This document shows, piece by piece, positions 4,385 to 64,000 of a stretch of DNA of 64,000 nt. A model generated the notes under the pieces. It searched no databases. It was given only the letters and a program-made list of their open reading frames with translations, and was not told where the DNA came from. The position numbers and the translations under genes were made by a program. How positions within the stretch are numbered: the first letter of the stretch is position 1; the number at the start of each line of letters is the position of its first letter. The stretch is from Escherichia phage vB_EcoM_E9, in sequence record PP886229. The stretch is one strand, 5' to 3'.

Positions 4385-9768
<5,384 letters not shown>

Positions 9769-12399: not shown

Positions 12400-13575
12400 A
12401 TGGCAGTAGGTGAAATTCAAATCAGTGCCTTGCCACAAGCGGCCTTACCAGTTGATTTAAGTGATATCTTCCATCTTAAGCAAGGTGTTGAGGATAAAAG
12501 ATGTACGCTTGAACAGTTGTTAGCACCTCACGCATCTCTGAGGAATAACCCTCATGGTGTAACCAAATCACAAGTGGGTCTTGATAATGTTATTAACTCT
12601 CTTCAATTAGTTGCAGCTAATAACTTATCAGATATTGTGAATGTTGCTGAGGCAAGAGCAAATCTACAAATTATGTCGTCAGAGGAAGTGAATAACTTAA
12701 TTCAGCAACATATTGACGATAAAAGTAACCCACACAATACAACGAAAGCACAAGTTGGATTAAGTAATGTTCAGAACTGGACAACATCTAATCTGTACAA
12801 TGAAGATGCTGATAAGTATGCTACCGCGAAAGCAGTTAATAATTTATACAAAGCTATCCAAGCGTCATATCCAGTAGGGACTATTCATCTATCTGTTAAC
12901 TCTGCTAACCCATCCACTTACTTGCTTTGTGGAGGTACTTGGGAGTTAGTTTCTAAAGGTAGAGCACTAGTTGGTTATGATACAGATTCTAGACCTGTTG
13001 GTTCAACGTTTGGTTCTCAGACTGTAGCATTAACAAATAATAATTTACCAGCACATACCCACTCTATCTATCTAACAGGTGGTGGTCATACACACTCTGC
13101 AAGTGTATCTATCTCTAGTTTTGATTATGGTTCAAAAAGTACATCAACTTTTGATTACGGTACAAAAACGACTAATAGTGCTGGTGCTCACACTCACACG
13201 TTTAGTGGCACAACAAGTAATGCTGGTAACCACAACCATAGAGTCCCTATGAGGGGTAATGATAGGGGTGGCACAAACGCTATTACTGCATCTGCTGATG
13301 CTGGTGTTGGTAATGCTATGTATACTGATTTAGCTGGTGCTCACACCCATAGCTTCTCAGGTACAACTGCATCATCTGGTGCTCATAGCCATACTGTCGC
13401 AATTGGTGCTCACAGCCACACTGTTAATATTGGTTCGCACAGTCATACAGGAACTGTTACTGTTTCTAGCTCTGAGCATACACACTCAGGGACATCTGGT
13501 TCTGTTGGTGGTGGTCAAGCTTTCAGTGTTGAGCAGCCATCTTTTGTAGTGTATGTGTGGCAGAGAACAGCTTAA
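12400..13575 (+). CDS. tail fibre protein with His-x-His repeat tip
   Basis: 391 aa; repeated NPH..TK.QVGL.NV.N motifs N-terminally and many H-x-H motifs C-terminally (AHTHS, GHTHSAS, GAHTHTFSGTT, GNHNHRV, GAHSHTV x2, GSHSHTG), as in T4 gp37/gp12-type fibre tips. Confidence 0.65.
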   Translation: MAVGEIQISALPQAALPVDLSDIFHLKQGVEDKRCTLEQLLAPHASLRNNPHGVTKSQVGLDNVINSLQLVAANNLSDIVNVAEARANLQIMSSEEVNNLIQQHIDDKSNPHNTTKAQVGLSNVQNWTTSNLYNEDADKYATAKAVNNLYKAIQASYPVGTIHLSVNSANPSTYLLCGGTWELVSKGRALVGYDTDSRPVGSTFGSQTVALTNNNLPAHTHSIYLTGGGHTHSASVSISSFDYGSKSTSTFDYGTKTTNSAGAHTHTFSGTTSNAGNHNHRVPMRGNDRGGTNAITASADAGVGNAMYTDLAGAHTHSFSGTTASSGAHSHTVAIGAHSHTVNIGSHSHTGTVTVSSSEHTHSGTSGSVGGGQAFSVEQPSFVVYVWQRTA

Positions 13576-13585
13576 TTTCTTTACA

Positions 13586-13606
13586 GGGGCTATAAAGCCC
13601 CTTTTA
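13586..13606 (+). terminator. hairpin attenuator between the two tail fibre genes
   Basis: GGGGC-tataaa-GCCCC followed by TTTT, then RBS and ATG of the next fibre gene. Confidence 0.4.
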
Positions 13607-13621
13607 AGAGGAAAATTTATA

Positions 13622-16171
13622 ATGGCAGATTACAAATTGAGTCAATTAAACTCAATCGACACAATTCGTTCAGAAGACCTATTGCACATCAGAGTTAAGA
13701 AAAGACCTGAAATGTTGGGTGACGAAGACCGTAGAATGACCTATCAAGACTTCTTAGCTTCTTTCAAACTTGAAAGATTTGTTCAGATTGCTGGTAGTAC
13801 TATGACAGGTGACTTAGGTATTGTTAAGTTACTTTATGGTGGTAAGGCAGTATTTGACCCAACAGGCTCTTCTGAGGTTACTATTGGGGATGTTTTAAAG
13901 ACTTTTAAAATTAACGCAAATGGTCTTAAACTAGCTATTGCAGATGCTTCAAGGTCAGCAACTGTTTATCATACTCTGAATAAACCAAGTCCTAATGAGC
14001 TTGGGATGAGAACTAATGAAGAGAATGATGAAAGATATGCAAGGCTTGCTATCACAAATAACTTCAGCATTAGGCAAGCAATCGTAACTGATGGTGAGCA
14101 GTTAACTCTTAAGAAGGCAACCAATGCAGGTGCTTCATATATTCAAGGTAGAGATGCTAATAACCAGCAAACTTGGTATGTTGGACAGGGAAATGCAAAC
14201 AGCAATAATGTTTATTTGTACAATCATACTACTGGTGCAATGTTAACCCTTGATGCAACAGCAGCATTTAATAAGTCACTTAGAATTGCTGGTCAAGTTC
14301 AACCTTCGGATTTCTCTAACTTAGATGCCAGATACTTTACTCAGACAGTTGCTAATCAGAGATTTGCACAGTTAGCTGGTAATAACACTTTTACAGGTGC
14401 TAATACATTTAGGACTATGAGTATTATCTCAAATGCTGCTGCTATCACACTACAATGTGCATCAGCAAACGAATCCCTGTATCTACTTGCAAAAGATTAT
14501 CAAGGTGGTAACTTATGGTATGTTGGTAAAGGTAGCTCAGGTGATGGTGTAACTATCTACAACTATACCACTAACACCTCTTTGGTCTTAGATGCTGCTG
14601 GAGTATCAGCAAATAAAAATGTCAGAATCACTGGACAAGTTCAACCTTCAGATTGGGCTAACATTGACTCTAGATATATTCCGGCAGCAACATTAAGTAC
14701 AATTGCAAGAACTAATGCAAGGAATACTTTTAATGGTGTACAGACAGTTGTTACGGATAATGAAGGTCTGATTGTTAAAAACTCTACTCAGAATAGACCA
14801 TTATATATTCGTGGTGTGGACACTACTAATGTATCAAGATGGTGGATTGGTGTTGGTGGTGCTGATACGAATGATGTTACCCTAAATAACAGTTATTCTG
14901 GAACCCAATTGGTTCTCGGGAATACAACATCATACATTAACAAAACATTGACTATTGCTGGACAAGTTCAACCTTCAGATTTCTCTAACTTAGATGCTAG
15001 ATACTTTACGCAAAGTGCTAGTGATAGCAGATACCTAAGAATCAGAAGCACTAGCTTCAATGTGGGAAACACTGATAAGTGGGCTAAAATTGCCACTGTT
15101 GTTATGCCACAATCAGCATCCACTGCTGTTATTGAGGTATTTGGTGGGTCAGGTTTTAATATTAATACACCAAACCAAGCAGGTAAATGTGAAATTGTTC
15201 TGCGAACTTCAAATAACAACCCAAAGGGCTTAAATGTTGTTGCTTGGAGAACATCAGATAACACCATTGTCAGGGATATTGGTTATGTGAATACTTCTGG
15301 AGACACCTATGATATTTACTATCTTGCTGGTACGTATCAAAACGGCACAACGACAAGGGTTCAGTCTTCTAGTAATGCAAGTGTACAGTTGTTTGAAGTC
15401 CCACAGACATTTGATGATGCTCCACAAGGTATTGTGAAGGGTACAATTGCAAAATACTACACAAGTTTGCAAAAACCAACCCCTTCAGATATTGGTGCAT
15501 ACACTAAAGCAGAGACTGACCAGAAAATTGCAGATGCAATTAGTGACTCTACAGACCTGAATAAAATCTACCCAGTAGGTATTGTAACGTGGTTTAACAG
15601 CAATGTTAACCCTAATACAGCACTTCCTGGGTTAACTTGGACGTACCTGAACAATGGTGTGGGTAGAACTATTAGAATTGCAGCAGCAAATGGTTCAGAT
15701 GTTGCTACAACTGGTGGTTCAGACTCTGTAACGTTATCTGTTGGTAACTTACCTTCACACACGCATAGCTTCTCTGCTACCACTTCATCATTTGATTATG
15801 GTACTAAGACTTCTAGCACAACTGGTAACCATAACCACAACAGGGGGACTATGGAGATTACTGGTACAGTAGGTTACTTCAGAAGTGATTCTAGCAGCTT
15901 CTACACAGCAAGTGGTGCATTCACACTTGGTAGTTCAACTGCTTCTAAAGGTTTTACTGGTTCTAACTTCACTTATGGTATCCCTGCTAACTTCAATGCG
16001 TCAAGAACTTGGTCTGGTGTAACGAATACAACAGGTAACCACAGCCACACTGTTGGTATTGGTGCTCACAGCCACACAGTTAGCGGTAACACAGGTGGTA
16101 CTGGTTCTGGTTCAGCATTTAGTGTTACTAACCAGTTCTACAAGTTAATGGCTTGGGTAAGAACTGCTTAA
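13622..16171 (+). CDS. large tail fibre protein
   Basis: Start moved to ATG at 13622 (after hairpin, with RBS); internal triplicated segment (..IAGQVQPSDFSNLDARYFTQ.. x2, ..ITGQVQPSDWANIDSRYIP..); C-terminal H-x-H motifs and tail AFSVTNQFYKLMAWVRTA resembling the upstream fibre's AFSVEQPSFVVYVWQRTA. Confidence 0.65.
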   Translation: MADYKLSQLNSIDTIRSEDLLHIRVKKRPEMLGDEDRRMTYQDFLASFKLERFVQIAGSTMTGDLGIVKLLYGGKAVFDPTGSSEVTIGDVLKTFKINANGLKLAIADASRSATVYHTLNKPSPNELGMRTNEENDERYARLAITNNFSIRQAIVTDGEQLTLKKATNAGASYIQGRDANNQQTWYVGQGNANSNNVYLYNHTTGAMLTLDATAAFNKSLRIAGQVQPSDFSNLDARYFTQTVANQRFAQLAGNNTFTGANTFRTMSIISNAAAITLQCASANESLYLLAKDYQGGNLWYVGKGSSGDGVTIYNYTTNTSLVLDAAGVSANKNVRITGQVQPSDWANIDSRYIPAATLSTIARTNARNTFNGVQTVVTDNEGLIVKNSTQNRPLYIRGVDTTNVSRWWIGVGGADTNDVTLNNSYSGTQLVLGNTTSYINKTLTIAGQVQPSDFSNLDARYFTQSASDSRYLRIRSTSFNVGNTDKWAKIATVVMPQSASTAVIEVFGGSGFNINTPNQAGKCEIVLRTSNNNPKGLNVVAWRTSDNTIVRDIGYVNTSGDTYDIYYLAGTYQNGTTTRVQSSSNASVQLFEVPQTFDDAPQGIVKGTIAKYYTSLQKPTPSDIGAYTKAETDQKIADAISDSTDLNKIYPVGIVTWFNSNVNPNTALPGLTWTYLNNGVGRTIRIAAANGSDVATTGGSDSVTLSVGNLPSHTHSFSATTSSFDYGTKTSSTTGNHNHNRGTMEITGTVGYFRSDSSSFYTASGAFTLGSSTASKGFTGSNFTYGIPANFNASRTWSGVTNTTGNHSHTVGIGAHSHTVSGNTGGTGSGSAFSVTNQFYKLMAWVRTA

Positions 16172-16250: not shown

Positions 16251-16448
16251 ATGCCTACAATCCTAGCAATTCTTCTAAAAAATCTAGGTAGCTTCTTCTG
16301 GAAACTCATTTTATCCCTTCTAAGTGAATACATGATTGAGAAAGTGTTCTTTAGGCTTGCAAGATACCTTGCGAGTAAAACAGACACACCTATTGATGAT
16401 GAGTTCGTAGATAACTTAGAAAAAGCTTTTAAGGGGGAAAATAAATGA
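16251..16448 (+). CDS. small hydrophobic protein
   Basis: 65 aa, hydrophobic N-terminal segment (ILAILLKNLGSFFWKLILSLL). Confidence 0.3.
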   Translation: MPTILAILLKNLGSFFWKLILSLLSEYMIEKVFFRLARYLASKTDTPIDDEFVDNLEKAFKGENK

Positions 16449-16816
16449 AGTGGCTAGAGGAAGCTTTTAAAAATAATATTGGTGCAATTGTAGTTGGTAT
16501 TTTTAGTGTTATTGGGATGTATACCACCATGCAAGTTTCAAGTGGTAAACAAGAAGTGTCTGTCACAACAAAGTTACAGCAGCTAGATAACTATTCCAAA
16601 AGTAATTATTCAGCTATTCGTGATTTACAGTCTGACATGAGATTGATTCAGCTAGGGATGGAGAACCAGAAAGTTCAGTTAGAGAATGTTAAGGGTGAGA
16701 ATGCAAAACTTACCAAAACTCTTGATAAGTTCTCTGATAGTGTGAACAATCTGGCTCAGTCAGTATCAGCCTTGCAAGCTATTACTGAAAAGAACACAAA
16801 GAATACTGAAAAATAA
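16445..16816 (+). CDS. membrane-anchored coiled-coil protein
   Basis: 123 aa, single N-terminal TM segment (IGAIVVGIFSVIGMY) then Gln/Leu-rich helical region. Confidence 0.35.
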   Translation: MKWLEEAFKNNIGAIVVGIFSVIGMYTTMQVSSGKQEVSVTTKLQQLDNYSKSNYSAIRDLQSDMRLIQLGMENQKVQLENVKGENAKLTKTLDKFSDSVNNLAQSVSALQAITEKNTKNTEK

Positions 16817-20445: not shown

Positions 20446-20697
20446 GGCTACTGCCATCCTTCCATACATTACCTCACCTGACCTGACCTGACCCTACCTA
20501 ACATTACCGTGCCACACCTCACTTAAAAACCCTCTTAAAAGACTCTTAAGTGATGTAATCGAATTTTTATGTAGCTCCGATTAACTACCCATACCTCACC
20601 TCATCCAACCATACCATGCCTTACCAGACCGCACCTTACCTTACTAAAAGACCCTGTTTAAAGACCTTTTAAAAAGGAGCCTCCGAAGAGGCTACCT
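20446..20697. repeat. composite G-depleted pentamer-periodic repeat, copy pair 1
   Basis: Two tandem units of about 110 nt, each with a 50-60 nt (ACCNN)n-like tract almost devoid of G on the + strand, joined by a hairpin linker; ends in conserved ..aaaaccctcttaaaagactcttaagtgatg / ..aaagaccttttaaaaagg. Confidence 0.7.
20676..20697 (-). terminator. hairpin terminator after gene 20705..21145
   Basis: AGCCTC-ttcg-GAGGCT hairpin directly downstream (minus strand) of the stop codon. Confidence 0.45.
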
Positions 20698-20704
20698 AGT
20701 CAAC

Positions 20705-21145
20705 TTAGAAAGGTTTTCTACGTTGCTTGTTAATGTTAGCTTTCATAGCAGCTAAATGGTTTTGCTGTTCAATCAGTCGTGAACGTTCTTGATGACTAAG
20801 TGCCATAGTGTTCACATTCTCAATCGCTTGAGTGGCTTGCTTTAAAGCTCGACCAATCTTGCCAGACATTTTACGTTTTGCAATAGTTGCTTGATGCTTA
20901 GGTTCAACCACACGATAACCAACACCCATTGAAGCAACCAGATAAATCTTCTCTTCTTTAAGAAGCTTCTCAATAAACTTCTCAAGTCGGTTTAGACGTG
21001 TAAGCGCATAAGCCTTCATTTCATCTTCGTACTTAACAATGTCACCTTGATAAGTTGGCTTCACAATACCTAAGAAGGTATCCATCTCAGAATGTGATAC
21101 AGTGTCACCGTAACTAAACTTTGCTGCTAATGCTTTTGTATTCAT
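20705..21145 (-). CDS. hypothetical protein in repeat-flanked module
   Basis: 146 aa ORF, basic C-terminus; no motif recognised. Confidence 0.45.
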   Translation of the reverse strand: MNTKALAAKFSYGDTVSHSEMDTFLGIVKPTYQGDIVKYEDEMKAYALTRLNRLEKFIEKLLKEEKIYLVASMGVGYRVVEPKHQATIAKRKMSGKIGRALKQATQAIENVNTMALSHQERSRLIEQQNHLAAMKANINKQRRKPF

Positions 21146-21147
21146 AA

Positions 21148-21753
<606 letters not shown>

Positions 21754-21827
21754 TTAGTTGATTGTTAAGTTGTTTGTAAAGAACCCTCAACAGAAGACTC
21801 TTTAGAAACTTGGTAGATTTTTAATGT

Positions 21828-22095
21828 GGCTACTACCATCCACCCATACCTCACAACACCATGCCATACCCGACCGGACAAGACCAGACCCTACCGCGCC
21901 AGACCTCATTAAAAGACCCTCTTTAAAGACCTTTTAAAAAGGTAAGTCTCATTTTAATGTAGCTGAGACTAACTACCCATACCCTACTTTACCTTACCGT
22001 ACCGTACTTTACCCGACCGTACCGGACAATACTTAACCCTACCTCACCCGACCGGACATCACTTAAAAACCCTCTTAAAAGACTCTTAAGTGATG
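21828..22095. repeat. composite G-depleted pentamer-periodic repeat, copy pair 2
   Basis: Second tandem pair of the same family with (NNACC)n-like tracts (..taccgtaccgtactttacccgaccgtaccggac..), linker hairpin with compensatory stem changes, same conserved ends. Confidence 0.7.
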
Positions 22096-22125
22096 CTGGT
22101 GAGTACCCGTTGGTTTATGCTGCTC

Positions 22126-22153
22126 AGTATACTCACCAAATTTTCTATGTCAA
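22126..22153 (-). promoter_or_regulatory. sigma70-like promoter reading into the repeat region (minus strand)
   Basis: Minus-strand TTGACA-N16-TATACT just downstream of the ligase stop; transcript would carry the G-rich repeat as a leader of about 350 nt. Confidence 0.4.
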
Positions 22154-22159
22154 CAACTT

Positions 22160-23264: not shown

Positions 23265-23456
23265 TTATTCCTCTGAGTGATACCAAGTGTTGCAAGCATT
23301 ACATGCGTAAAGCTCTAAGTCATTTTTATCTGGTTTATGAAAACAGTTTGCTCCGCAGTGGCAACGAAACGGCTTTCCACCAACTGTCAGGATGAAAGAT
23401 TGAACCTTTCCATCAGGAGTTCGTACAGCATTTTTATGCTTATCTTCTTTGTTCAT
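23265..23456 (-). CDS. small zinc-ribbon protein
   Basis: 63 aa with CHC...C and CNAC Cys pairs. Confidence 0.35.
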   Translation of the reverse strand: MNKEDKHKNAVRTPDGKVQSFILTVGGKPFRCHCGANCFHKPDKNDLELYACNACNTWYHSEE

Positions 23457-23669: not shown

Positions 23670-23906
23670 TCACTCAATAACCGTAGTATGTGATTGACCA
23701 TTTTTGCCATAGCTATAAGATGTTGTTGTTTGAGAGTTTGGACATCTGACAACAACAATATCTCTGCTTATGGCATCGCCATGTAACTTGTAGACTTTGC
23801 AATCTTGCATCTCTGGTGGGAGGCTATAAGAAGCATTTTTATCCTCGTAAGAGGGATTGCAGCCAGCTAGAAAAATAACACCAAGCACAATTACTGCTTT
23901 CCACAT
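23670..23906 (-). CDS. putative lipoprotein
   Basis: N-terminus MWKAVIVLGVIFLAGC: signal peptide with lipobox LAGC. Confidence 0.4.
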   Translation of the reverse strand: MWKAVIVLGVIFLAGCNPSYEDKNASYSLPPEMQDCKVYKLHGDAISRDIVVVRCPNSQTTTSYSYGKNGQSHTTVIE

Positions 23907-42631: not shown

Positions 42632-42680
42632 AAGGTGATGTGGGTCTTGATAGGCTTACATCACCTTTTTTTATTGGATG
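42632..42680 (+). terminator. rho-independent terminator after nrdD
   Basis: AAGGTGATGTG...ACATCACCTT stem followed by TTTTTTT. Confidence 0.6.
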
Positions 42681-42778
42681 TTAGACATGGCAGAGAGTAT
42701 TATTGGGTTGTTCATAGGTTCTGTCTTACTAGGGTTCTTTTTAGGACTCTCTTATTGTGGATTGAGAGATAAGTTAAA

Positions 42779-42979
42779 ATGTTTAAAATACCAAAAACGT
42801 TGATATACATACTCCATATTCTAATCTTCTTCTTTGGGGTTAGTGTTATGGTATGGGGTTTTTCAGACCCACAATGGGGTTTCTCATATCATGGTCAGAT
42901 GGATTTATGGTCATGCTTCAAACCATTTTTAGGGTTAGCTATAGCATTCAGCGCATTGCCAACTAAGGTGAAATTATGA
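42779..42979 (+). CDS. small membrane protein
   Basis: 66 aa with hydrophobic helices (IYILHILIFFFGVSVMVWGF). Confidence 0.3.
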   Translation: MFKIPKTLIYILHILIFFFGVSVMVWGFSDPQWGFSYHGQMDLWSCFKPFLGLAIAFSALPTKVKL

Positions 42980-52494: not shown

Positions 52495-52508
52495 TAAGTA
52501 ATTTCTTA

Positions 52509-52534
52509 AAAGGCTGCTTCGGCGGCCTTTTTTA
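52509..52534 (+). terminator. rho-independent terminator
   Basis: GGCTGC-ttcg-GCGGCC followed by TTTTTT. Confidence 0.6.
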
Positions 52535-52594
52535 TTTGTATTTTGTGCAGAGTGCTGTATAATTGTTGTCACGATAAACTAAACAGGAGAACCA

Positions 52595-53143
52595 ATGAAG
52601 AAATTGATTCTAGGATTGTGCTTAATGTTTACAGCACATTTATCTTATGCAGTTGACTGCCCAGAGCTATCAATTAGCCAAAAAGTTAACATGTTAAAAG
52701 CTTACCAGTATGGTGAGAACAACATGGGGAAAGGCTGGGGTATTACTCTAGCAGCTATAGCCTTACAAGAGTCAGAGTTAGGTCTGAAGGTAGAGAATAA
52801 AAAGACCCATGACTATGGTATTTTCCAGAATCACTTGAAGACTGTTGTAAAGCGTAACAAAATTAGTCCTAATGTGGCTAAAAAGAAACTCTTAAAAGAT
52901 TTTGACTATGCAGCAAAAGAGACACATAAAGAGCTTGAGTTTTGGACTAAGGTACATGGTCACCCGAAGTCAAAGAAGACTTTACAAAAAGTTTTAGCAT
53001 CATATAATGCTGGGTATTCGTACAAAATTCCTAAAGCTAAGAAATACTCTCAAGATGTCTATAACAATATGAAAGTTATTGCTCAATGTGAATTTGCAAC
53101 AAACATTTCTAAGGTAAATCATGAAAAAATTAAGAAAGTCTGA
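52595..53143 (+). CDS. secreted lytic transglycosylase-like protein (endolysin candidate)
   Basis: Signal peptide MKKLILGLCLMFTAHLSYA then ..IALQESELG.. resembling the SLT-domain catalytic Glu-Ser motif. Confidence 0.4.
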   Translation: MKKLILGLCLMFTAHLSYAVDCPELSISQKVNMLKAYQYGENNMGKGWGITLAAIALQESELGLKVENKKTHDYGIFQNHLKTVVKRNKISPNVAKKKLLKDFDYAAKETHKELEFWTKVHGHPKSKKTLQKVLASYNAGYSYKIPKAKKYSQDVYNNMKVIAQCEFATNISKVNHEKIKKV

Positions 53144-53816
53144 TGAAGTCCTGTGCCACGCTTATGACTTGCATCCTCATGAGTTAGGTCTTGATTCCTG
53201 TGTATGGACTCCAGAACAGTGCAGGGATTTTGAAGACACTGCAAGAGAAGTTGTATGTTCACTTGAAGAGTTCCACACATCAGAACCAATTGTGAACGTT
53301 GTGGATAAAGAAACTGGACAAGCTATAGGTGTAAGTCGTGACAGTTTAGTCATAGTCAATAAAGACCTTGTAGAAAAAGGTAACCTCATCTTAGCAGATA
53401 TTGATGGTGTTCTTACAAATTTTAATCACGAAGATTGCTCAACGGAATTGACTGATGGGTCATTCTCACAATACACTAATCTTCTTGACTCTGTAAGAGC
53501 AAAACCAACATATGTTTTTAGTATTATTGATGCAATTGCTAATCATGCTGCCATTGGACTCTTGACAGCGAGAGGTGAATCTCAGAGAATACCTACTGAG
53601 ATGTTCTTAAGGCATAACATAGAGCATGACTACATGCTTTTTATGCGTGGTTTTGGAACTAACTCTATAAGTGCAGAAAGTTTGAAAGTGAGGATGATTC
53701 AGTCTTGCATTCTTCCTTATTTTAATATAGTATGCTTTATAGAAGATACAGAGAAGAATGTTCAGAAGGTTAACAGAATCCTTCCACACATTAAAACCAT
53801 GTTAGTTAAACATTGA
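53121..53816 (+). CDS. putative HAD-superfamily hydrolase
   Basis: ..ILADIDGVLTN.. resembles HAD motif I (DxDG[T/V]); weak. Confidence 0.3.
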   Translation: MKKLRKSDEVLCHAYDLHPHELGLDSCVWTPEQCRDFEDTAREVVCSLEEFHTSEPIVNVVDKETGQAIGVSRDSLVIVNKDLVEKGNLILADIDGVLTNFNHEDCSTELTDGSFSQYTNLLDSVRAKPTYVFSIIDAIANHAAIGLLTARGESQRIPTEMFLRHNIEHDYMLFMRGFGTNSISAESLKVRMIQSCILPYFNIVCFIEDTEKNVQKVNRILPHIKTMLVKH

Positions 53817-54292
53817 GAGAAAAACTTATGAACAATATCATTACGGTAGCACTGGACGATACGGCAAACAAATCTGAAGTAGTTCGTAAAATGATTCAAG
53901 GCAACTTTGAAGGTAAAATTTTCCGTGCTGTTAATGTAAAAGCTGATGGCAGCATTCGTGAATATCGTGCATTGTTGAATGTTAAAAAGCACGTAAAAGG
54001 TGCTGGTTCAACGACTGCACACAAAGAAAACCTGATGACTATCTACGATATGGGTAAGGCTTCAGAGTTAGGTGCTGAAGGTATCGTTAAAGAAGGTGCT
54101 CCGTATCGCTCTTTCAATCTGGAAACTACTCTTATGCTTTCCTTTACAAGTGGTTCTAAAACAATCACTTATCTCTTTACTGATGCTGCAACGGTATCTG
54201 CTATTAAGGATGGCACTGTCAAAGCTGGCGTAGTTGCTGCTGCAAAAGCTTCTTCGATGGCTGCGAATATCCTTGCTAAAGTCCTCAGTTAA
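53813..54292 (+). CDS. hypothetical protein
   Basis: 159 aa ORF followed by a terminator. Confidence 0.3.
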   Translation: MREKLMNNIITVALDDTANKSEVVRKMIQGNFEGKIFRAVNVKADGSIREYRALLNVKKHVKGAGSTTAHKENLMTIYDMGKASELGAEGIVKEGAPYRSFNLETTLMLSFTSGSKTITYLFTDAATVSAIKDGTVKAGVVAAAKASSMAANILAKVLS

Positions 54293-54304
54293 GGTTAAGA
54301 TACA

Positions 54305-54325
54305 GGCTCCTTCGGGAGCCTTTTT
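54305..54325 (+). terminator. rho-independent terminator
   Basis: GGCTCC-ttcg-GGAGCC followed by TTTTT. Confidence 0.6.
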
Positions 54326-54344
54326 CATTTCAGGAGATTGTTAA

Positions 54345-54692
54345 ATGACATTTAAAGAGTTCTGCCAAGCTACTTTCATAATTGTTTTCTTAGTTGGAGC
54401 AGGTGTCTGGGGAGGATACTCTTACAGAGACTACCAAGTTGCTGAGACTGAGCTAAATAATGAGAAACTAATAAGTGTTGCTAAAGATGCTTATCAGGAA
54501 GGTTTAGCCACACTCAGCACCAATTACAAAAATGATTTGAAAGATGTGCTTGCTAAGAATAAGCATACAAAAGAGGTACTAACATATGAAAAGACTAAGC
54601 CAGAGTTTTATAATGTTTGTGTTACTGATAATTATGTCAGGGTGTTCAACGAACAAAGCGAACAGTACATTCAAAAACTACCAAGTAAGTGA
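54345..54692 (+). CDS. i-spanin-like protein (Rz-like)
   Basis: 115 aa; N-terminal TM segment (FIIVFLVGAGVWGGY) then helical periplasmic region; 3' end overlaps a lipoprotein ORF in another frame. Confidence 0.4.
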   Translation: MTFKEFCQATFIIVFLVGAGVWGGYSYRDYQVAETELNNEKLISVAKDAYQEGLATLSTNYKNDLKDVLAKNKHTKEVLTYEKTKPEFYNVCVTDNYVRVFNEQSEQYIQKLPSK

Positions 54693-54855
54693 GAGTGACA
54701 AGTACACTCAAGAAGAATCAAGATTCACTGTCAAAGGTAATACTGGTAGTGATGTGGCAGCAGCCCTTGAATTTTATCGTGATGGTTTTTACCAGTGCAC
54801 AATAAAAGCTAATAACCTTATTGATATGATTTTATTAGGGAACAAACAGCAATGA
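54586..54855 (+). CDS. o-spanin-like lipoprotein (Rz1-like)
   Basis: 89 aa; MKRLSQSFIMFVLLIIMSGC signal peptide with lipobox; start embedded in the 3' end of the preceding gene. Confidence 0.4.
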   Translation: MKRLSQSFIMFVLLIIMSGCSTNKANSTFKNYQVSESDKYTQEESRFTVKGNTGSDVAAALEFYRDGFYQCTIKANNLIDMILLGNKQQ

Positions 54856-56143: not shown

Positions 56144-56929
56144 ATGGGTATTGTAAAAATCATCAATGGGGATATCTTCTCAGCATTTGATAAAGGTAAG
56201 TTTGATATTATTGGTCACGGTTGCAACTGTATGAACTTAATGGGTGCAGGTATCGCTGACAAGATTTCTAAACTTTACCCAAAAGCATATGAGACTGATA
56301 CAGAAGTTTATCTGTATGCAGGTGGTATAGGTCACAAACCCTGTGAAAATTTACTAGGTAATTTCTCTGTAGCACGTTTAAAACAAGGTCGTATAGCTAA
56401 TCTTTACACTCAGCTTAAGACTGGTAAAGATGCCCGATACAGTGCTTTAGAGTCATCTTTGAAACAGCTTAACAGATACTGTGAAGTCAATCAGTTGAAG
56501 AAAGTCGGGTTACCTATGATTGGTGCAGGTATCGGTGGGCTAGACCCTCAAGCCATCACAGTTATCATTAATCAGGTGATGAAGAGTGTAGATGTTTATC
56601 TGTATGTCTACGAAGGAGAGATGTACCACAAGTTACGCTCAGGTTGGAAGAACTACTGTGAGCCAGAATACTTTGCAGGTGTAGTAACGTTCACAGATGA
56701 TGCAGTTACCCTCTTCAGACGAAGAAAAGGTAAGATACATCAAAGTAACCCTCCGGTTGAGAAGATGTCTCTAAGTAACGCTCTAGTTACCCACATGTCG
56801 AAGGGCAATCACAGGATAGCCGTAACATTTGGCAGTGATGCAGATACATATATCTATGCAAGAACTGATGAGGATATCGAGGAAATTTTCTCATCATCAG
56901 AAGTTACCTTCTTAGACGCAAAGAGCTAA
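56144..56929 (+). CDS. macro-domain protein (ADP-ribose-binding/processing)
   Basis: ..INGDIFSAFDKGKFDIIGHGCNCMNLMGAGIADKI.. and ..KVGLPMIGAGIGGLD.. match the two glycine-rich macro-domain signatures (recollection). Confidence 0.5.
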   Translation: MGIVKIINGDIFSAFDKGKFDIIGHGCNCMNLMGAGIADKISKLYPKAYETDTEVYLYAGGIGHKPCENLLGNFSVARLKQGRIANLYTQLKTGKDARYSALESSLKQLNRYCEVNQLKKVGLPMIGAGIGGLDPQAITVIINQVMKSVDVYLYVYEGEMYHKLRSGWKNYCEPEYFAGVVTFTDDAVTLFRRRKGKIHQSNPPVEKMSLSNALVTHMSKGNHRIAVTFGSDADTYIYARTDEDIEEIFSSSEVTFLDAKS

Positions 56930-63359: not shown

Positions 63360-64000
63360 TAGGGGCTGTTAAGTTACTTTGAAGTTACGTAAAAGAGGCT
63401 ACAAAGTTACGTAAATGCTAGCCCCCTTAACATTCTCTTAACAATTTCTTAACAATCCCTACATAGTTATGCTTGTTAGAGACTTGTTAGCCCCTTGTTA
63501 AATCTCTGTTAAGACCACGTAAAAGCCTTGTAAGAGTCTTTAGCATAGCCTTTAAAGCCTCTGTAAAGCCCTATAAAGAGGTGTCTACATAGTTGGGGTG
63601 TAATTACTAGGAAGAGACTTAAAAGAGCTTACAAAGAGCTATAGAGAACTTTTAAGAGGTATGTTTAGAGAATCACTAAGAAAGAGAGGGAACTATAGAC
63701 CAAGAGATAGTGACCATGTTAATAGCTTGTTAAAAAGATTAAACACTTGTTAGGAATTTGTTAATTATCTTAACAAAATAACTCTTAAAAATTAACTTGT
63801 TAGCTCTTATTAGTCATCTGTTAAGACTCTGTAAAACCTATGTATCAACTGTTAAGAAACTGTTACACCCTTGTTAGCTCTGTTAAGAATCTGTTAAGAC
63901 CTCTGAAGAGATGTTAAGAGGTTGTAAGAACTGTTAAGAGATTGTTAAGGATATTTTAAAATTTTGCAAAGGGGATGTTACAGGGATGTTAAGGGCTACC
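63360..64000. repeat. array of YTGTTARG motifs, helically phased at the 3' end
   Basis: At least 15 copies of (c/t)tgtta(a/g)g(a); from about 63849 to 63945 ten copies recur every 9-11 bp; no ORF of 60 aa or more; array runs to the window edge. Confidence 0.6.

Follow-up and report, generated by a model that had tools for sequence, protein, structure and literature searches.

The overlapping genes at the downstream end of the region described here very probably encode a known spanin pair of the overlapped class, accompanied by a separate SLT-like protein of the T4 Vs.1 family that is not an endolysin, in a phage whose lysis genes are scattered. The window, which here means the whole 64-kb stretch of DNA analyzed, shares 96–97% nucleotide identity with Felixounavirus genomes (known coliphages), and its source is assigned on sequence grounds to Felixounavirus, as a Felix O1-like myophage. 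The corresponding region of the relative Pr103Blw spans positions 23672–88421 and, judged from relatives, the window leaves ∼23 kb of the genome uncovered. A sequence-only reading had proposed a lysis cassette here, made up of a secreted SLT-like protein and an Rz/Rz1-like pair. The coordinates it gave for the SLT-like, inner-membrane (i-spanin), and outer-membrane (o-spanin) ORFs are all exact, and its call of an overlapping pair holds to the exact start codon of the lipoprotein, in agreement both with how experts annotated phage Moogle and with the catalogue of spanins in the literature, where Felix O1 falls in the overlapped class (Kongari et al. 2018, PMC6139136). The pair is thus already catalogued for Felix O1-like phages.

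Table 1. Predicted features of the region and the candidate holin gene, in window coordinates
Feature	Position	Strand	Basis and details
Gene named "putative holin" in relatives (Pr103Blw_00076), 123 aa	16445..16816	+	phrog_4038, unknown function
Intrinsic terminator hairpin, after rIIB, upstream of SLT-like gene	52508..52531	+	10-bp stem with 5 GC pairs, then T-run
Sec-signal GH23/SLT-fold protein, T4 Vs.1 family (phrog_600), 182 aa	52595..53143	+	phrog_600 E=1.3e-57, residues 1–170
Polynucleotide kinase (PseT-like)	53121..53816	+	phrog_3970 E=2e-134; same annotation in relatives
Conserved soluble protein, phrog_2267	53828..54292	+	Start taken from public annotations
Intrinsic terminator hairpin between SLT-pnk-ORF block and i-spanin gene	54304..54321	+	AGGCTCCTTCGGGAGCCT, then TTTTT
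i-spanin (inner-membrane spanin subunit), 115 aa: N-terminal TM segment, then periplasmic domain	54345..54692	+	phrog_1152 "Rz-like spanin" E=8e-42
Shine-Dalgarno AAGAGG of o-spanin, within i-spanin coding sequence	54571..54576	+	9 nt upstream of o-spanin start
o-spanin (outer-membrane lipoprotein subunit), 89 aa: signal peptide, lipobox IMSG/C20, Ser at +2	54586..54855	+	phrog_4180 E=2e-49

The i-spanin is annotated as such at the same gene in the relatives dune, EcoM2, Pr103Blw, and Moogle. Its single hydrophobic segment lies at the N terminus (residues 6–24, Kyte-Doolittle value 1.75 in a 19-residue window), in keeping with the membrane-anchored topology expected by the sequence-only reading, and this segment is conserved in six lineages. 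Residues E82, K83, C92, Y97, F101, and N102 are invariant in the family alignment. The periplasmic domain is all-helical in a single-sequence AF2 model of low confidence (pLDDT 48.7), which is too low to back a coiled coil.

The o-spanin ORF opens in the +1 frame, 107 nt ahead of the i-spanin stop, and ends beyond the i-spanin gene. Its N terminus, MKRLSQSFIMFVLLIIMSG followed by C, has the layout MKR, hydrophobic core, and then IMSG/C20, and residues C20, S21, T22, C71, N76, and L78 are invariant across the six lineages; Ser21 and Thr22 thus occupy the +2 and +3 positions of the mature protein, with no Asp at +2. Under the Lol sorting rule of Escherichia coli, lipoproteins without Asp at +2 go to the outer membrane. 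The Shine-Dalgarno region, AAAGAGGT, is conserved in all 31 relatives compared, and the Moogle record also marks a ribosome-binding site there. Of four GenBank records inspected, three (dune, EcoM2, and Pr103Blw) begin the o-spanin at the internal Met17, and because the start is placed there the signal peptide is lost from these models. The longer ORF in the window is the better gene model and is to be preferred in the many GenBank Felixounavirus records that use the internal Met.

Substitutions were analyzed in a sample of 31 distinct related sequences. Variable sites in the single-coding parts of the two genes are mostly third codon positions (59/80 and 46/55), whereas within the overlap the third-position share falls to 12/36 in the i-spanin frame and 9/35 in the o-spanin frame, a pattern that indicates dual coding. 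All 31 sequences keep the ATG at 54586 with its ribosome-binding site, the Cys codon, and both stops. A scan for lipobox ORFs over both strands of the entire window gave two candidates, as compared with a mean of 0.5 in mononucleotide shuffles. Overlapped pairs are also found in Mooglevirus, Kolesnikvirus, Yersinia phage P778, Kuravirus SGF2, and Proteus Gorganvirus, where the equivalent overlap is 107–155 nt; a scan with the o-spanin as a single protein returned only Felixounavirus- and Mooglevirus-level relatives. Across the six lineages Cys-Ser-Thr at the lipobox never varies, and neither does a single periplasmic Cys in each subunit (C92 in the i-spanin and C71 in the o-spanin). The conserved C-terminal motifs read E-K...C-x-x-x-x-Y...F-N in the i-spanin and E-x-Y-R-D...C...N-x-L in the o-spanin. 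The pair of the Proteus phage directly follows a holin, a hypothetical gene, and an endolysin, and that of the Yersinia phage follows an endolysin.

These data bear on the possibility that the genes are not spanins at all, being instead another kind of envelope pair, with for example a superinfection-exclusion lipoprotein, or a gene with a second ORF overlapping it by chance. The best PHROG of the o-spanin has no assigned function and its secondary match, to phrog_456 ("Rz-like spanin"), is weak (E=9e-5), no similarity to T4 PseT.3/PseT.2 is detectable, and the mature o-spanin is without proline, unlike lambda Rz1; all of this would suit such an interpretation. A chance ORF is, however, ruled out by the substitution pattern together with the conserved start, ribosome-binding site, Cys, and stops, and the two genes stay paired in six lineages, in two of which it sits right after the endolysin as in a classic lysis cassette. 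Given also the curated spanin annotation of Moogle and the catalogue of Kongari et al. 2018 (PMC6139136), a non-spanin identity is exceedingly improbable, and the two ORFs are identified, from their sequence features and relatives, as a predicted two-component spanin pair of the overlapped class.

By analogy with work on lambda and T4, the i-spanin would be anchored in the inner membrane through its N-terminal TM segment and the o-spanin, once exported, would receive its lipid at Cys20 and, having Ser at +2, would end up in the outer membrane, on its inner leaflet. The subunits would bind via their periplasmic C-terminal regions, giving a complex that spans the periplasm through the peptidoglycan mesh. 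Destruction of the peptidoglycan by an endolysin encoded elsewhere in the genome would free these complexes to disrupt the outer membrane, probably via fusion with the inner membrane. The SLT-like protein, encoded 1.2 kb upstream, would stand outside this spanin/endolysin machinery. With its ordinary cleavable Sec signal it would enter the periplasm independently of a holin, most probably well ahead of lysis, and would there carry out at most limited remodeling or nicking of peptidoglycan. No experimental study of a Felix O1-type spanin or of a Vs.1-family protein was found in the literature; the functions given here are therefore drawn from homology, from context, and from features of the sequences.

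The SLT-like gene adjoins rIIA/rIIB and has a ribosome-binding site, AGGAG, at 52585–52589. The N terminus of its product consists of MKK, a 13-residue hydrophobic core, and SYA/VD, with a Kyte-Doolittle peak of 1.64 (19-residue window) at residues 4–22 and a predicted cleavage after Ala19 that would leave residues 20–182 as the mature protein, and the LQESELG motif occupies residues 57–63; this signal, and the motif with its invariant E59, uphold the secreted SLT-like protein recognized in the sequence-only reading. Across 15 homologues E59, Q78, Y137, N138, and G140 never vary and conservation of S60 is ≥90%, the catalytic motifs Glu-Ser, G-x-x-Q, and Y-N-x-G being kept down to ∼30% identity. 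The AF2 model (pLDDT 84.6) has as its top Foldseek matches in the PDB g-type lysozyme, a GH23 chitinase, EtgA, and Slt Cj0843 (probability 1.0, TM ∼0.5), and viral SLT proteins match it at TM 0.7–0.8. The protein misses the cutoff of Pfam SLT (PF01464) with 18.8 versus 21.3 bits; the T4 homologue, at 25.1 bits, is above it, and so are four distant homologues among the precomputed Pfam hits. Matches to the protein by tblastn come from 2,142 phage records, T4-like for the most part. It is identified as a member of the T4 Vs.1 family with a predicted GH23 fold, and is probably a lytic transglycosylase. Some records name it "putative lysin," and in several records the Vs.1 family is mislabeled as RegB endoribonuclease.

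Were the SLT-like protein a secreted endolysin, it and the spanins, which lie two genes further downstream, would make up a compact lysis cassette missing only its holin. Consistent with this are the GH23 fold and conserved catalytic Glu, the Sec-type signal, the location of the gene on the same strand as the spanins and only 1.2 kb away, the synteny maintained in Moogle and Erwinia phage Panisse, the "putative lysin" label, and the lack of a visible promoter from the terminator to the i-spanin. Relatives have, however, a separate canonical endolysin, located at 5866–6330 in Pr103Blw (phrog_7, E=5e-58), and the endolysin of Felix O1-like phages is described as a soluble lysozyme (Moogle paper). 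The Pr103Blw endolysin has no homologue within the window, and from relatives at 96% identity the endolysin of this phage is predicted to lie in the ∼23 kb beyond it. Mutants of T4 gene e fail to lyse despite the presence of vs.1, which counts against the SLT-like protein being an endolysin. Moreover, T4 vs.1 has early RNA, with a middle protein profile, and sits 73 kb from the T4 spanins, and Vs.1 is left out of the count of that phage's lysozymes. An endolysin cassette is therefore highly improbable on this evidence; the SLT-like protein is not the endolysin of the phage, and the labels "lysin" and "endolysin" are inappropriate for this member of a widespread T4 family.

The arrangement of the intervening DNA also speaks against a cassette. 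The terminator hairpin that separates the spanins from the SLT-pnk-ORF block is kept in 29/31 related sequences (27 identical and two with one loop change), and the intervening genes encode a polynucleotide kinase and a soluble protein, with no membrane ORF nearby. The latter product (53828..54292) has zero hydrophobic segments in the Kyte-Doolittle analysis and is therefore not a holin. Indeed, between 48.9 and 57 kb the same analysis finds no hydrophobic segment in any ORF besides those of the SLT-like protein, i-spanin, and o-spanin, in agreement with the earlier statement that no holin is adjacent. The two small membrane ORFs offered as alternative holins fared differently: 16445–16816 is a "putative holin" in public records, a name that comes from annotation, whereas 42779–42979 is a generic small membrane protein only. 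The putative product of 16445–16816 has one TM segment (residues 11–29), a C-terminal tail with weak coiled-coil-type Pfam matches, and a weak match to phrog_739 (E=0.009). It was also considered as a second i-spanin-like protein and set aside, as the lipobox scan gave no accompanying lipoprotein ORF.

A promoter scan found no sigma-70-like promoter between the 54304–54321 terminator and the i-spanin start, and the spanins may for this reason be transcribed by read-through from the SLT-pnk unit, and might be co-expressed with the SLT gene. The order SLT-pnk...spanin is conserved in Ounavirinae, including Moogle and Erwinia phage Panisse, and this synteny could reflect a functional link. The SLT gene itself has no convincing sigma-70 promoter, a perfect TATAAT at 52558–52563 being paired with a poor −35 and unflagged by the scan. 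The T4 late-promoter motif TATAAATA occurs no more often in the window than expected (3 matches versus 3.8), with none near the spanins.

Lysis genes in Felix O1-like phages are scattered and form no cassette (Moogle paper), and those of the phage studied here are likewise scattered around the genome in a T4-like layout. Because they are scattered as in T4, the term "cassette" is unsupported: the SLT-like protein belongs to the Vs.1 family, the endolysin of relatives lies elsewhere, a terminator intervenes, and the scattered layout is already published. In this respect the region is an ordinary one, and with the spanin pair catalogued and the layout published it brings little new biology. Experimental work might be worthwhile for the Vs.1 family alone.

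The SLT-like protein might alternatively be no working enzyme and serve as a periplasmic peptidoglycan-binding or regulatory protein, for instance one that acts in controlling superinfection or in timing lysis. In T4 the homologue is produced early with no premature lysis, the gene in the window neighbors rIIA/rIIB, the Pfam SLT score is under the cutoff, and EtgA, the closest solved relative by sequence, was crystallized fused to EscI, its partner in type III secretion. The activity of EtgA depends on this partner, which counts in the same direction. The catalytic motifs are nevertheless invariant, or nearly so, to ∼30% identity, the pattern of a retained active site, and a loss of enzymatic function is improbable. 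Returning to the protein as a probable lytic transglycosylase, it is possible, although not likely, that Vs.1-family members are active enzymes, Sec-exported without a holin and present in the periplasm long before lysis in a role distinct from endolysis. Such pre-lysis roles could include the conditioning of the sacculus, either for rapid rupture by spanins or for enlargement of the cell in prolonged infection, or interference with superinfecting phages. If true, the Vs.1 family would give T4-type infections a third muralytic activity, so far overlooked, in large virulent phages (T4-like and Felix O1-like, >2,000 genomes).

The spanins of the window are, among known systems, closest to those of Felix O1, whose o-spanin is an orthologue with 92% identity (tblastn), and of Moogle, whose spanins (CPT_Moogle122/121) are orthologues with identities of 77% (i-spanin) and 80% (o-spanin). 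The ORF lengths (348 and 270 nt), the 107-nt overlap, and the neighbors are the same in Moogle/Felix O1, and nothing substantive differs. The T4 pair PseT.3/PseT.2, with early transcripts, is similarly two-component, far from the holin and endolysin among non-structural genes, and one gene apart from the polynucleotide kinase gene. Complementation of lambda Rz-am Rz1-am is the assay that was applied to this T4 pair (Kongari et al. 2018, PMC6139136). The T4 genes, however, have a separated architecture in the order i-o-x-pnk, as compared with overlapping genes in the order pnk-x-i-o, and the periplasmic cysteines number 0+2 in T4 (Kongari et al. 2018, PMC6139136) and 1+1 in the window. BLASTP of the window spanins against PseT.3 and PseT.2 gave no similarity, so that the resemblance to T4 is one of layout only. 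Lambda Rz/Rz1 likewise combines a type II inner-membrane protein with an outer-membrane lipoprotein in another frame of the same DNA, and has periplasmic cysteines, but Rz1 is wholly embedded in Rz whereas the o-spanin of the window extends past the i-spanin. Lambda Rz1 is also short and proline-rich, in contrast to the mature o-spanin of 70 aa and zero proline.

T4 Vs.1 (UniProt P13311) matches phrog_600 at 2.1e-68 and shares with the SLT-like protein an N-terminal signal, a similar length (181 versus 182 aa), and the motifs E-S, G-x-F-Q-N, and S-Y-N-x-G, at 32% identity (E=2e-16). The neighbors differ, T4 vs.1 lying with regB and vs and the SLT-like gene with rIIB and pnk. The SLT similarity of vs.1 was already remarked upon by Nolan et al. 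2006, and the T4 vs.1 literature found consists of this bioinformatic remark, with no experimental work. Among solved structures the best sequence matches to the SLT-like protein are EtgA (fusion 8urn, E=7e-4) and goose lysozyme (E=7e-3). Identity to EtgA and the goose-type enzymes is just ∼15–18%, with TM ∼0.5, and the SLT-like protein differs from them in being phage-encoded and without a known partner structure. Like EtgA, the IagB/IpgF type, and the goose-type lysozymes (GH23), it is small and has a Glu-Ser catalytic motif, and the secretion-system lytic transglycosylases are Sec-exported, as is predicted for the SLT-like protein.

The overlapping ORFs at 54345–54692 (i-spanin) and 54586–54855 (o-spanin) form, as judged from their sequence, a genuine, conserved and dual-coding spanin pair. 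All of the ORFs named in an earlier sequence-only reading are present, with the same coordinates. The o-spanin ORF starts 107 nt ahead of the i-spanin stop codon, with a ribosome-binding site (AAGAGG) 9 nt upstream and the N terminus MKRLSQSFIMFVLLIIMSG/C, and is one of only two lipobox ORFs on both strands of the whole window (shuffled-sequence mean 0.5). The i-spanin ORF matches PHROG 1152, 'Rz-like spanin' (E = 8e-42), and the o-spanin ORF matches phrog_4180 (no assigned function, E = 2e-49) and, weakly, a spanin PHROG (E = 9e-5). Codon-position variability was determined over 31 distinct Felixounavirus/Mooglevirus sequences. Variable sites at positions 1, 2 and 3 number 22/81, 14/80 and 59/80 in the i-only part, 15/54, 8/54 and 46/55 in the o-only part, and 9/35, 7/36 and 12/36 in the overlap (i frame), such that the excess variation at third positions vanishes precisely in the doubly read stretch. 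All 31 sequences keep the ATG at 54586 and the o-spanin ribosome-binding site, as well as the Cys codon and the two stops. Together with the PHROG matches and dual coding, a published listing and a genome annotation show that the Rz/Rz1-like reading of the pair was correct and already known: '(Felix01, FO1a, UAB_phi87)' are placed among overlapped two-component spanins by Kongari et al. 2018 (PMC6139136), and the Moogle annotation of the Texas A&M phage centre (i-spanin 348 nt, o-spanin 270 nt, ribosome-binding site annotated) is equivalent to the present coordinates transposed. The pair itself being known, its identification here adds little that is new.

Features of the window discussed in the text
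Feature	Coordinates	Description
Long tail-fibre gene	13553–16171	
Small ORF	16251–16448	65 aa; phrog_402 (no function attached); N terminus hydrophobic or amphipathic
Putative holin	16445–16816	123 aa; one transmembrane segment; C-terminal tail with weak coiled-coil-type Pfam matches
Second lipobox ORF, the only one besides o-spanin	23670–23906	minus strand; 78 aa; N terminus MWKAVIVLGVIFLAG/CNPSYEDK
Small membrane proteins	42779–42979 and adjoining 42678–42803	PHROGs category 'moron/host takeover'
Intrinsic terminator	52508–52531	after rIIB
SLT-like gene	52595–53143	182 aa; ribosome-binding site AGGAG
Polynucleotide kinase gene (pnk)	53121–53816	
Soluble-protein ORF	53828–54292	
Intrinsic terminator	54304–54321	hairpin kept in 29/31 relatives
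i-spanin	54345–54692	115 aa; one hydrophobic segment, N-terminal (residues 6–24)
o-spanin	54586–54855	89 aa; +1 frame
Macro-domain gene (Appr-1-p processing/phosphatase)	56144–56929	five small ORFs beyond the spanin pair

In the records of phages dune (locus L001, 5634–5855), EcoM2 (L002, 3634–3855) and Pr103Blw (L004, 4878–5099), o-spanin is a 222-nt ORF ('MSGC...') beginning at an internal Met17, the ATG of which lies at 54634 in the window; a start at this position deletes the signal peptide. The internal ATG is lost (ATA) in two of the 31 relatives, and the upstream ATG and ribosome-binding site are retained in every one. The start at 54586 chosen in the sequence-only reading, which preserves the signal peptide, is therefore better than that of the three records.

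Full-length relatives of both spanins were found by tblastn beyond Felixounavirus, among others in Mooglevirus, Erwinia Kolesnikvirus and a Yersinia myophage, as well as in Kuravirus podophages and in Proteus and Klebsiella siphophages. In all five of the non-Felixounavirus lineages inspected, a lipoprotein ORF overlaps the 3' end of a membrane-anchored ORF, by 107–155 nt. Invariant positions in the family alignments are Cys20-Ser21-Thr22, C71, N76 and L78 of o-spanin, with Cys20 the predicted lipidated residue and a non-Asp residue at +2, and E82, K83, C92, Y97, F101 and N102 of i-spanin, so that the invariant periplasmic cysteines number one per subunit. The pair follows a holin, a hypothetical gene and an endolysin in Proteus phage PM-CJR, and comes after the endolysin in Yersinia phage P778, positions that lend independent contextual support to a lysis role. 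A full Gram-negative-type pair is also present in OK283618.1, 'Listeria phage LPML1' (classified Ounavirinae), as an ORF at 2474–2821 of its locus and an overlapping, unannotated +1-frame ORF with lipobox IMSG/C. Spanins serve no purpose in a Gram-positive host, and so the Listeria host label of this record looks doubtful.

The product of the SLT-like gene has a signal-like N terminus, comprised of MKK, a 13-residue hydrophobic core and SYA/VD, with LQESELG at residues 57–63. It scores 18.8 bits against Pfam SLT, under the 21.3 cutoff. Among 15 homologues, with identity down to about 30%, E59, Q78, Y137, N138 and G140 are invariant and S60 nearly so, and these conserved residues correspond to the three signature motifs of family-1 lytic transglycosylases. 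The AlphaFold model (pLDDT 84.6) matches goose-type lysozymes, a GH23 chitinase, EtgA and Slt Cj0843 in the PDB (probability 1.0, TM about 0.5) and phage 'SLT domain' proteins (TM 0.7–0.8); the top profile match among PDB sequences is the type III secretion transglycosylase EtgA (E = 7e-4). "Secreted SLT-like protein" was thus the correct description. The protein shares phrog_600 with T4 Vs.1; the two align over 174 residues with 32% identity (E = 2e-16) and have equal length and a similar signal-like N terminus. The family occurs in 2,142 phage records (tblastn), for the most part T4-like. Several of the matched genes are annotated 'RegB endoribonuclease' (e.g. MN342150.1, OL964736.1, MH807820.1, MN895438.1 and, in Erwinia phage Panisse, L010 1–74), probably an annotation error spread from the neighbouring T4 gene regB.

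The 4-kb region surrounding the spanin and SLT-like genes is 96–97% identical to many genomes of Felixounavirus, a group of Felix O1-like myophages that infect E. coli and Salmonella; the matching phage records total 259. The whole window aligns with 23672–88421 of Escherichia phage Pr103Blw, a span extending from the capsid/tail genes as far as the terminal repeat on the right. Its last ∼580 bases (63421–64000) match both Pr103Blw genome ends, annotated as a 581-bp direct terminal repeat, and the window therefore reaches the physical chromosome end of the phage. Three stretches (14058–15473, 20555–22159 and 23265–23452), taking in part of the long tail-fibre gene, align poorly or not at all to the otherwise collinear Pr103Blw; these variable regions may reflect indels or mobile genes.

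The proposal of a lysis cassette, with the SLT-like protein as its enzyme, is unsupported. In T4, vs.1 is flanked by vs and regB, at a distance of 73 kb from the spanins, and is classed as early RNA and middle protein in a time-resolved omics study; its SLT similarity was a bioinformatic remark by Nolan et al. 2006. The canonical Felixounavirus endolysin (phrog_7, E = 5e-58; Pr103Blw 5866–6330) lies within the 23 kb outside the window, and no homologue of it was found in the window. Moreover, the two intrinsic terminators bracket the block formed by the SLT-like gene, pnk and the soluble-protein ORF. Taken together, the position and timing of vs.1 in T4, the separate endolysin and the terminators indicate that the SLT-like protein does not serve as lysis enzyme in a cassette. 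No promoter was found between the second terminator and the i-spanin start, and it is therefore possible that the spanins are co-transcribed by read-through.

The absence of a holin beside the pair holds, since, apart from the SLT-like gene and the two spanin genes, no ORF at 48.9–57 kb encodes a hydrophobic segment. The putative holin is the counterpart of a Pr103Blw gene so annotated, and its family match is uninformative (phrog_4038, no function attached). It overlaps the small ORF before it by 4 nt, directly after the tail-fibre genes, and on position the two could be a holin/antiholin-like pair. The second lipobox ORF (phrog_902, no function attached, E = 4e-17), with other small genes around it and the genes for DNA ligase and polymerase close by, could encode a superinfection-exclusion type lipoprotein.

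By analogy with work on lambda and T4, i-spanin would be anchored in the inner membrane and o-spanin would be lipidated on Cys20, with Ser at +2 directing it to the outer membrane. Binding between the subunits would span the periplasm and pass through the peptidoglycan mesh, probably with intermolecular disulfides via the invariant cysteines, and the complexes would disrupt the outer membrane once peptidoglycan had been removed by the lysozyme-type endolysin. For the SLT-like protein, Sec is the most likely route into the periplasm, with no need of a holin; if active at all, the protein would be a limited peptidoglycan-remodelling enzyme.

A macro-domain gene lies downstream of the spanin pair in the window, directly after o-spanin in the unrelated Kuravirus podophage SGF2 (L012 3439–3879) and, as tk.4, two genes from vs.1 in T4, which may be recurrent linkage or coincidence.

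The T4 spanin genes pseT.3 and pseT.2 come one gene before pseT, which encodes polynucleotide kinase, are transcribed early and are far from t and e, whereas the window spanins sit one gene downstream of pnk, amid non-structural genes; the order is thus opposite in T4 (L009 8003–9782) and the window, with one gene between in both. The T4 spanin genes are separated and those of the window overlapped, and no similarity between their proteins was detectable. The likeness between T4 and the window is therefore one of genome layout and not of shared family.
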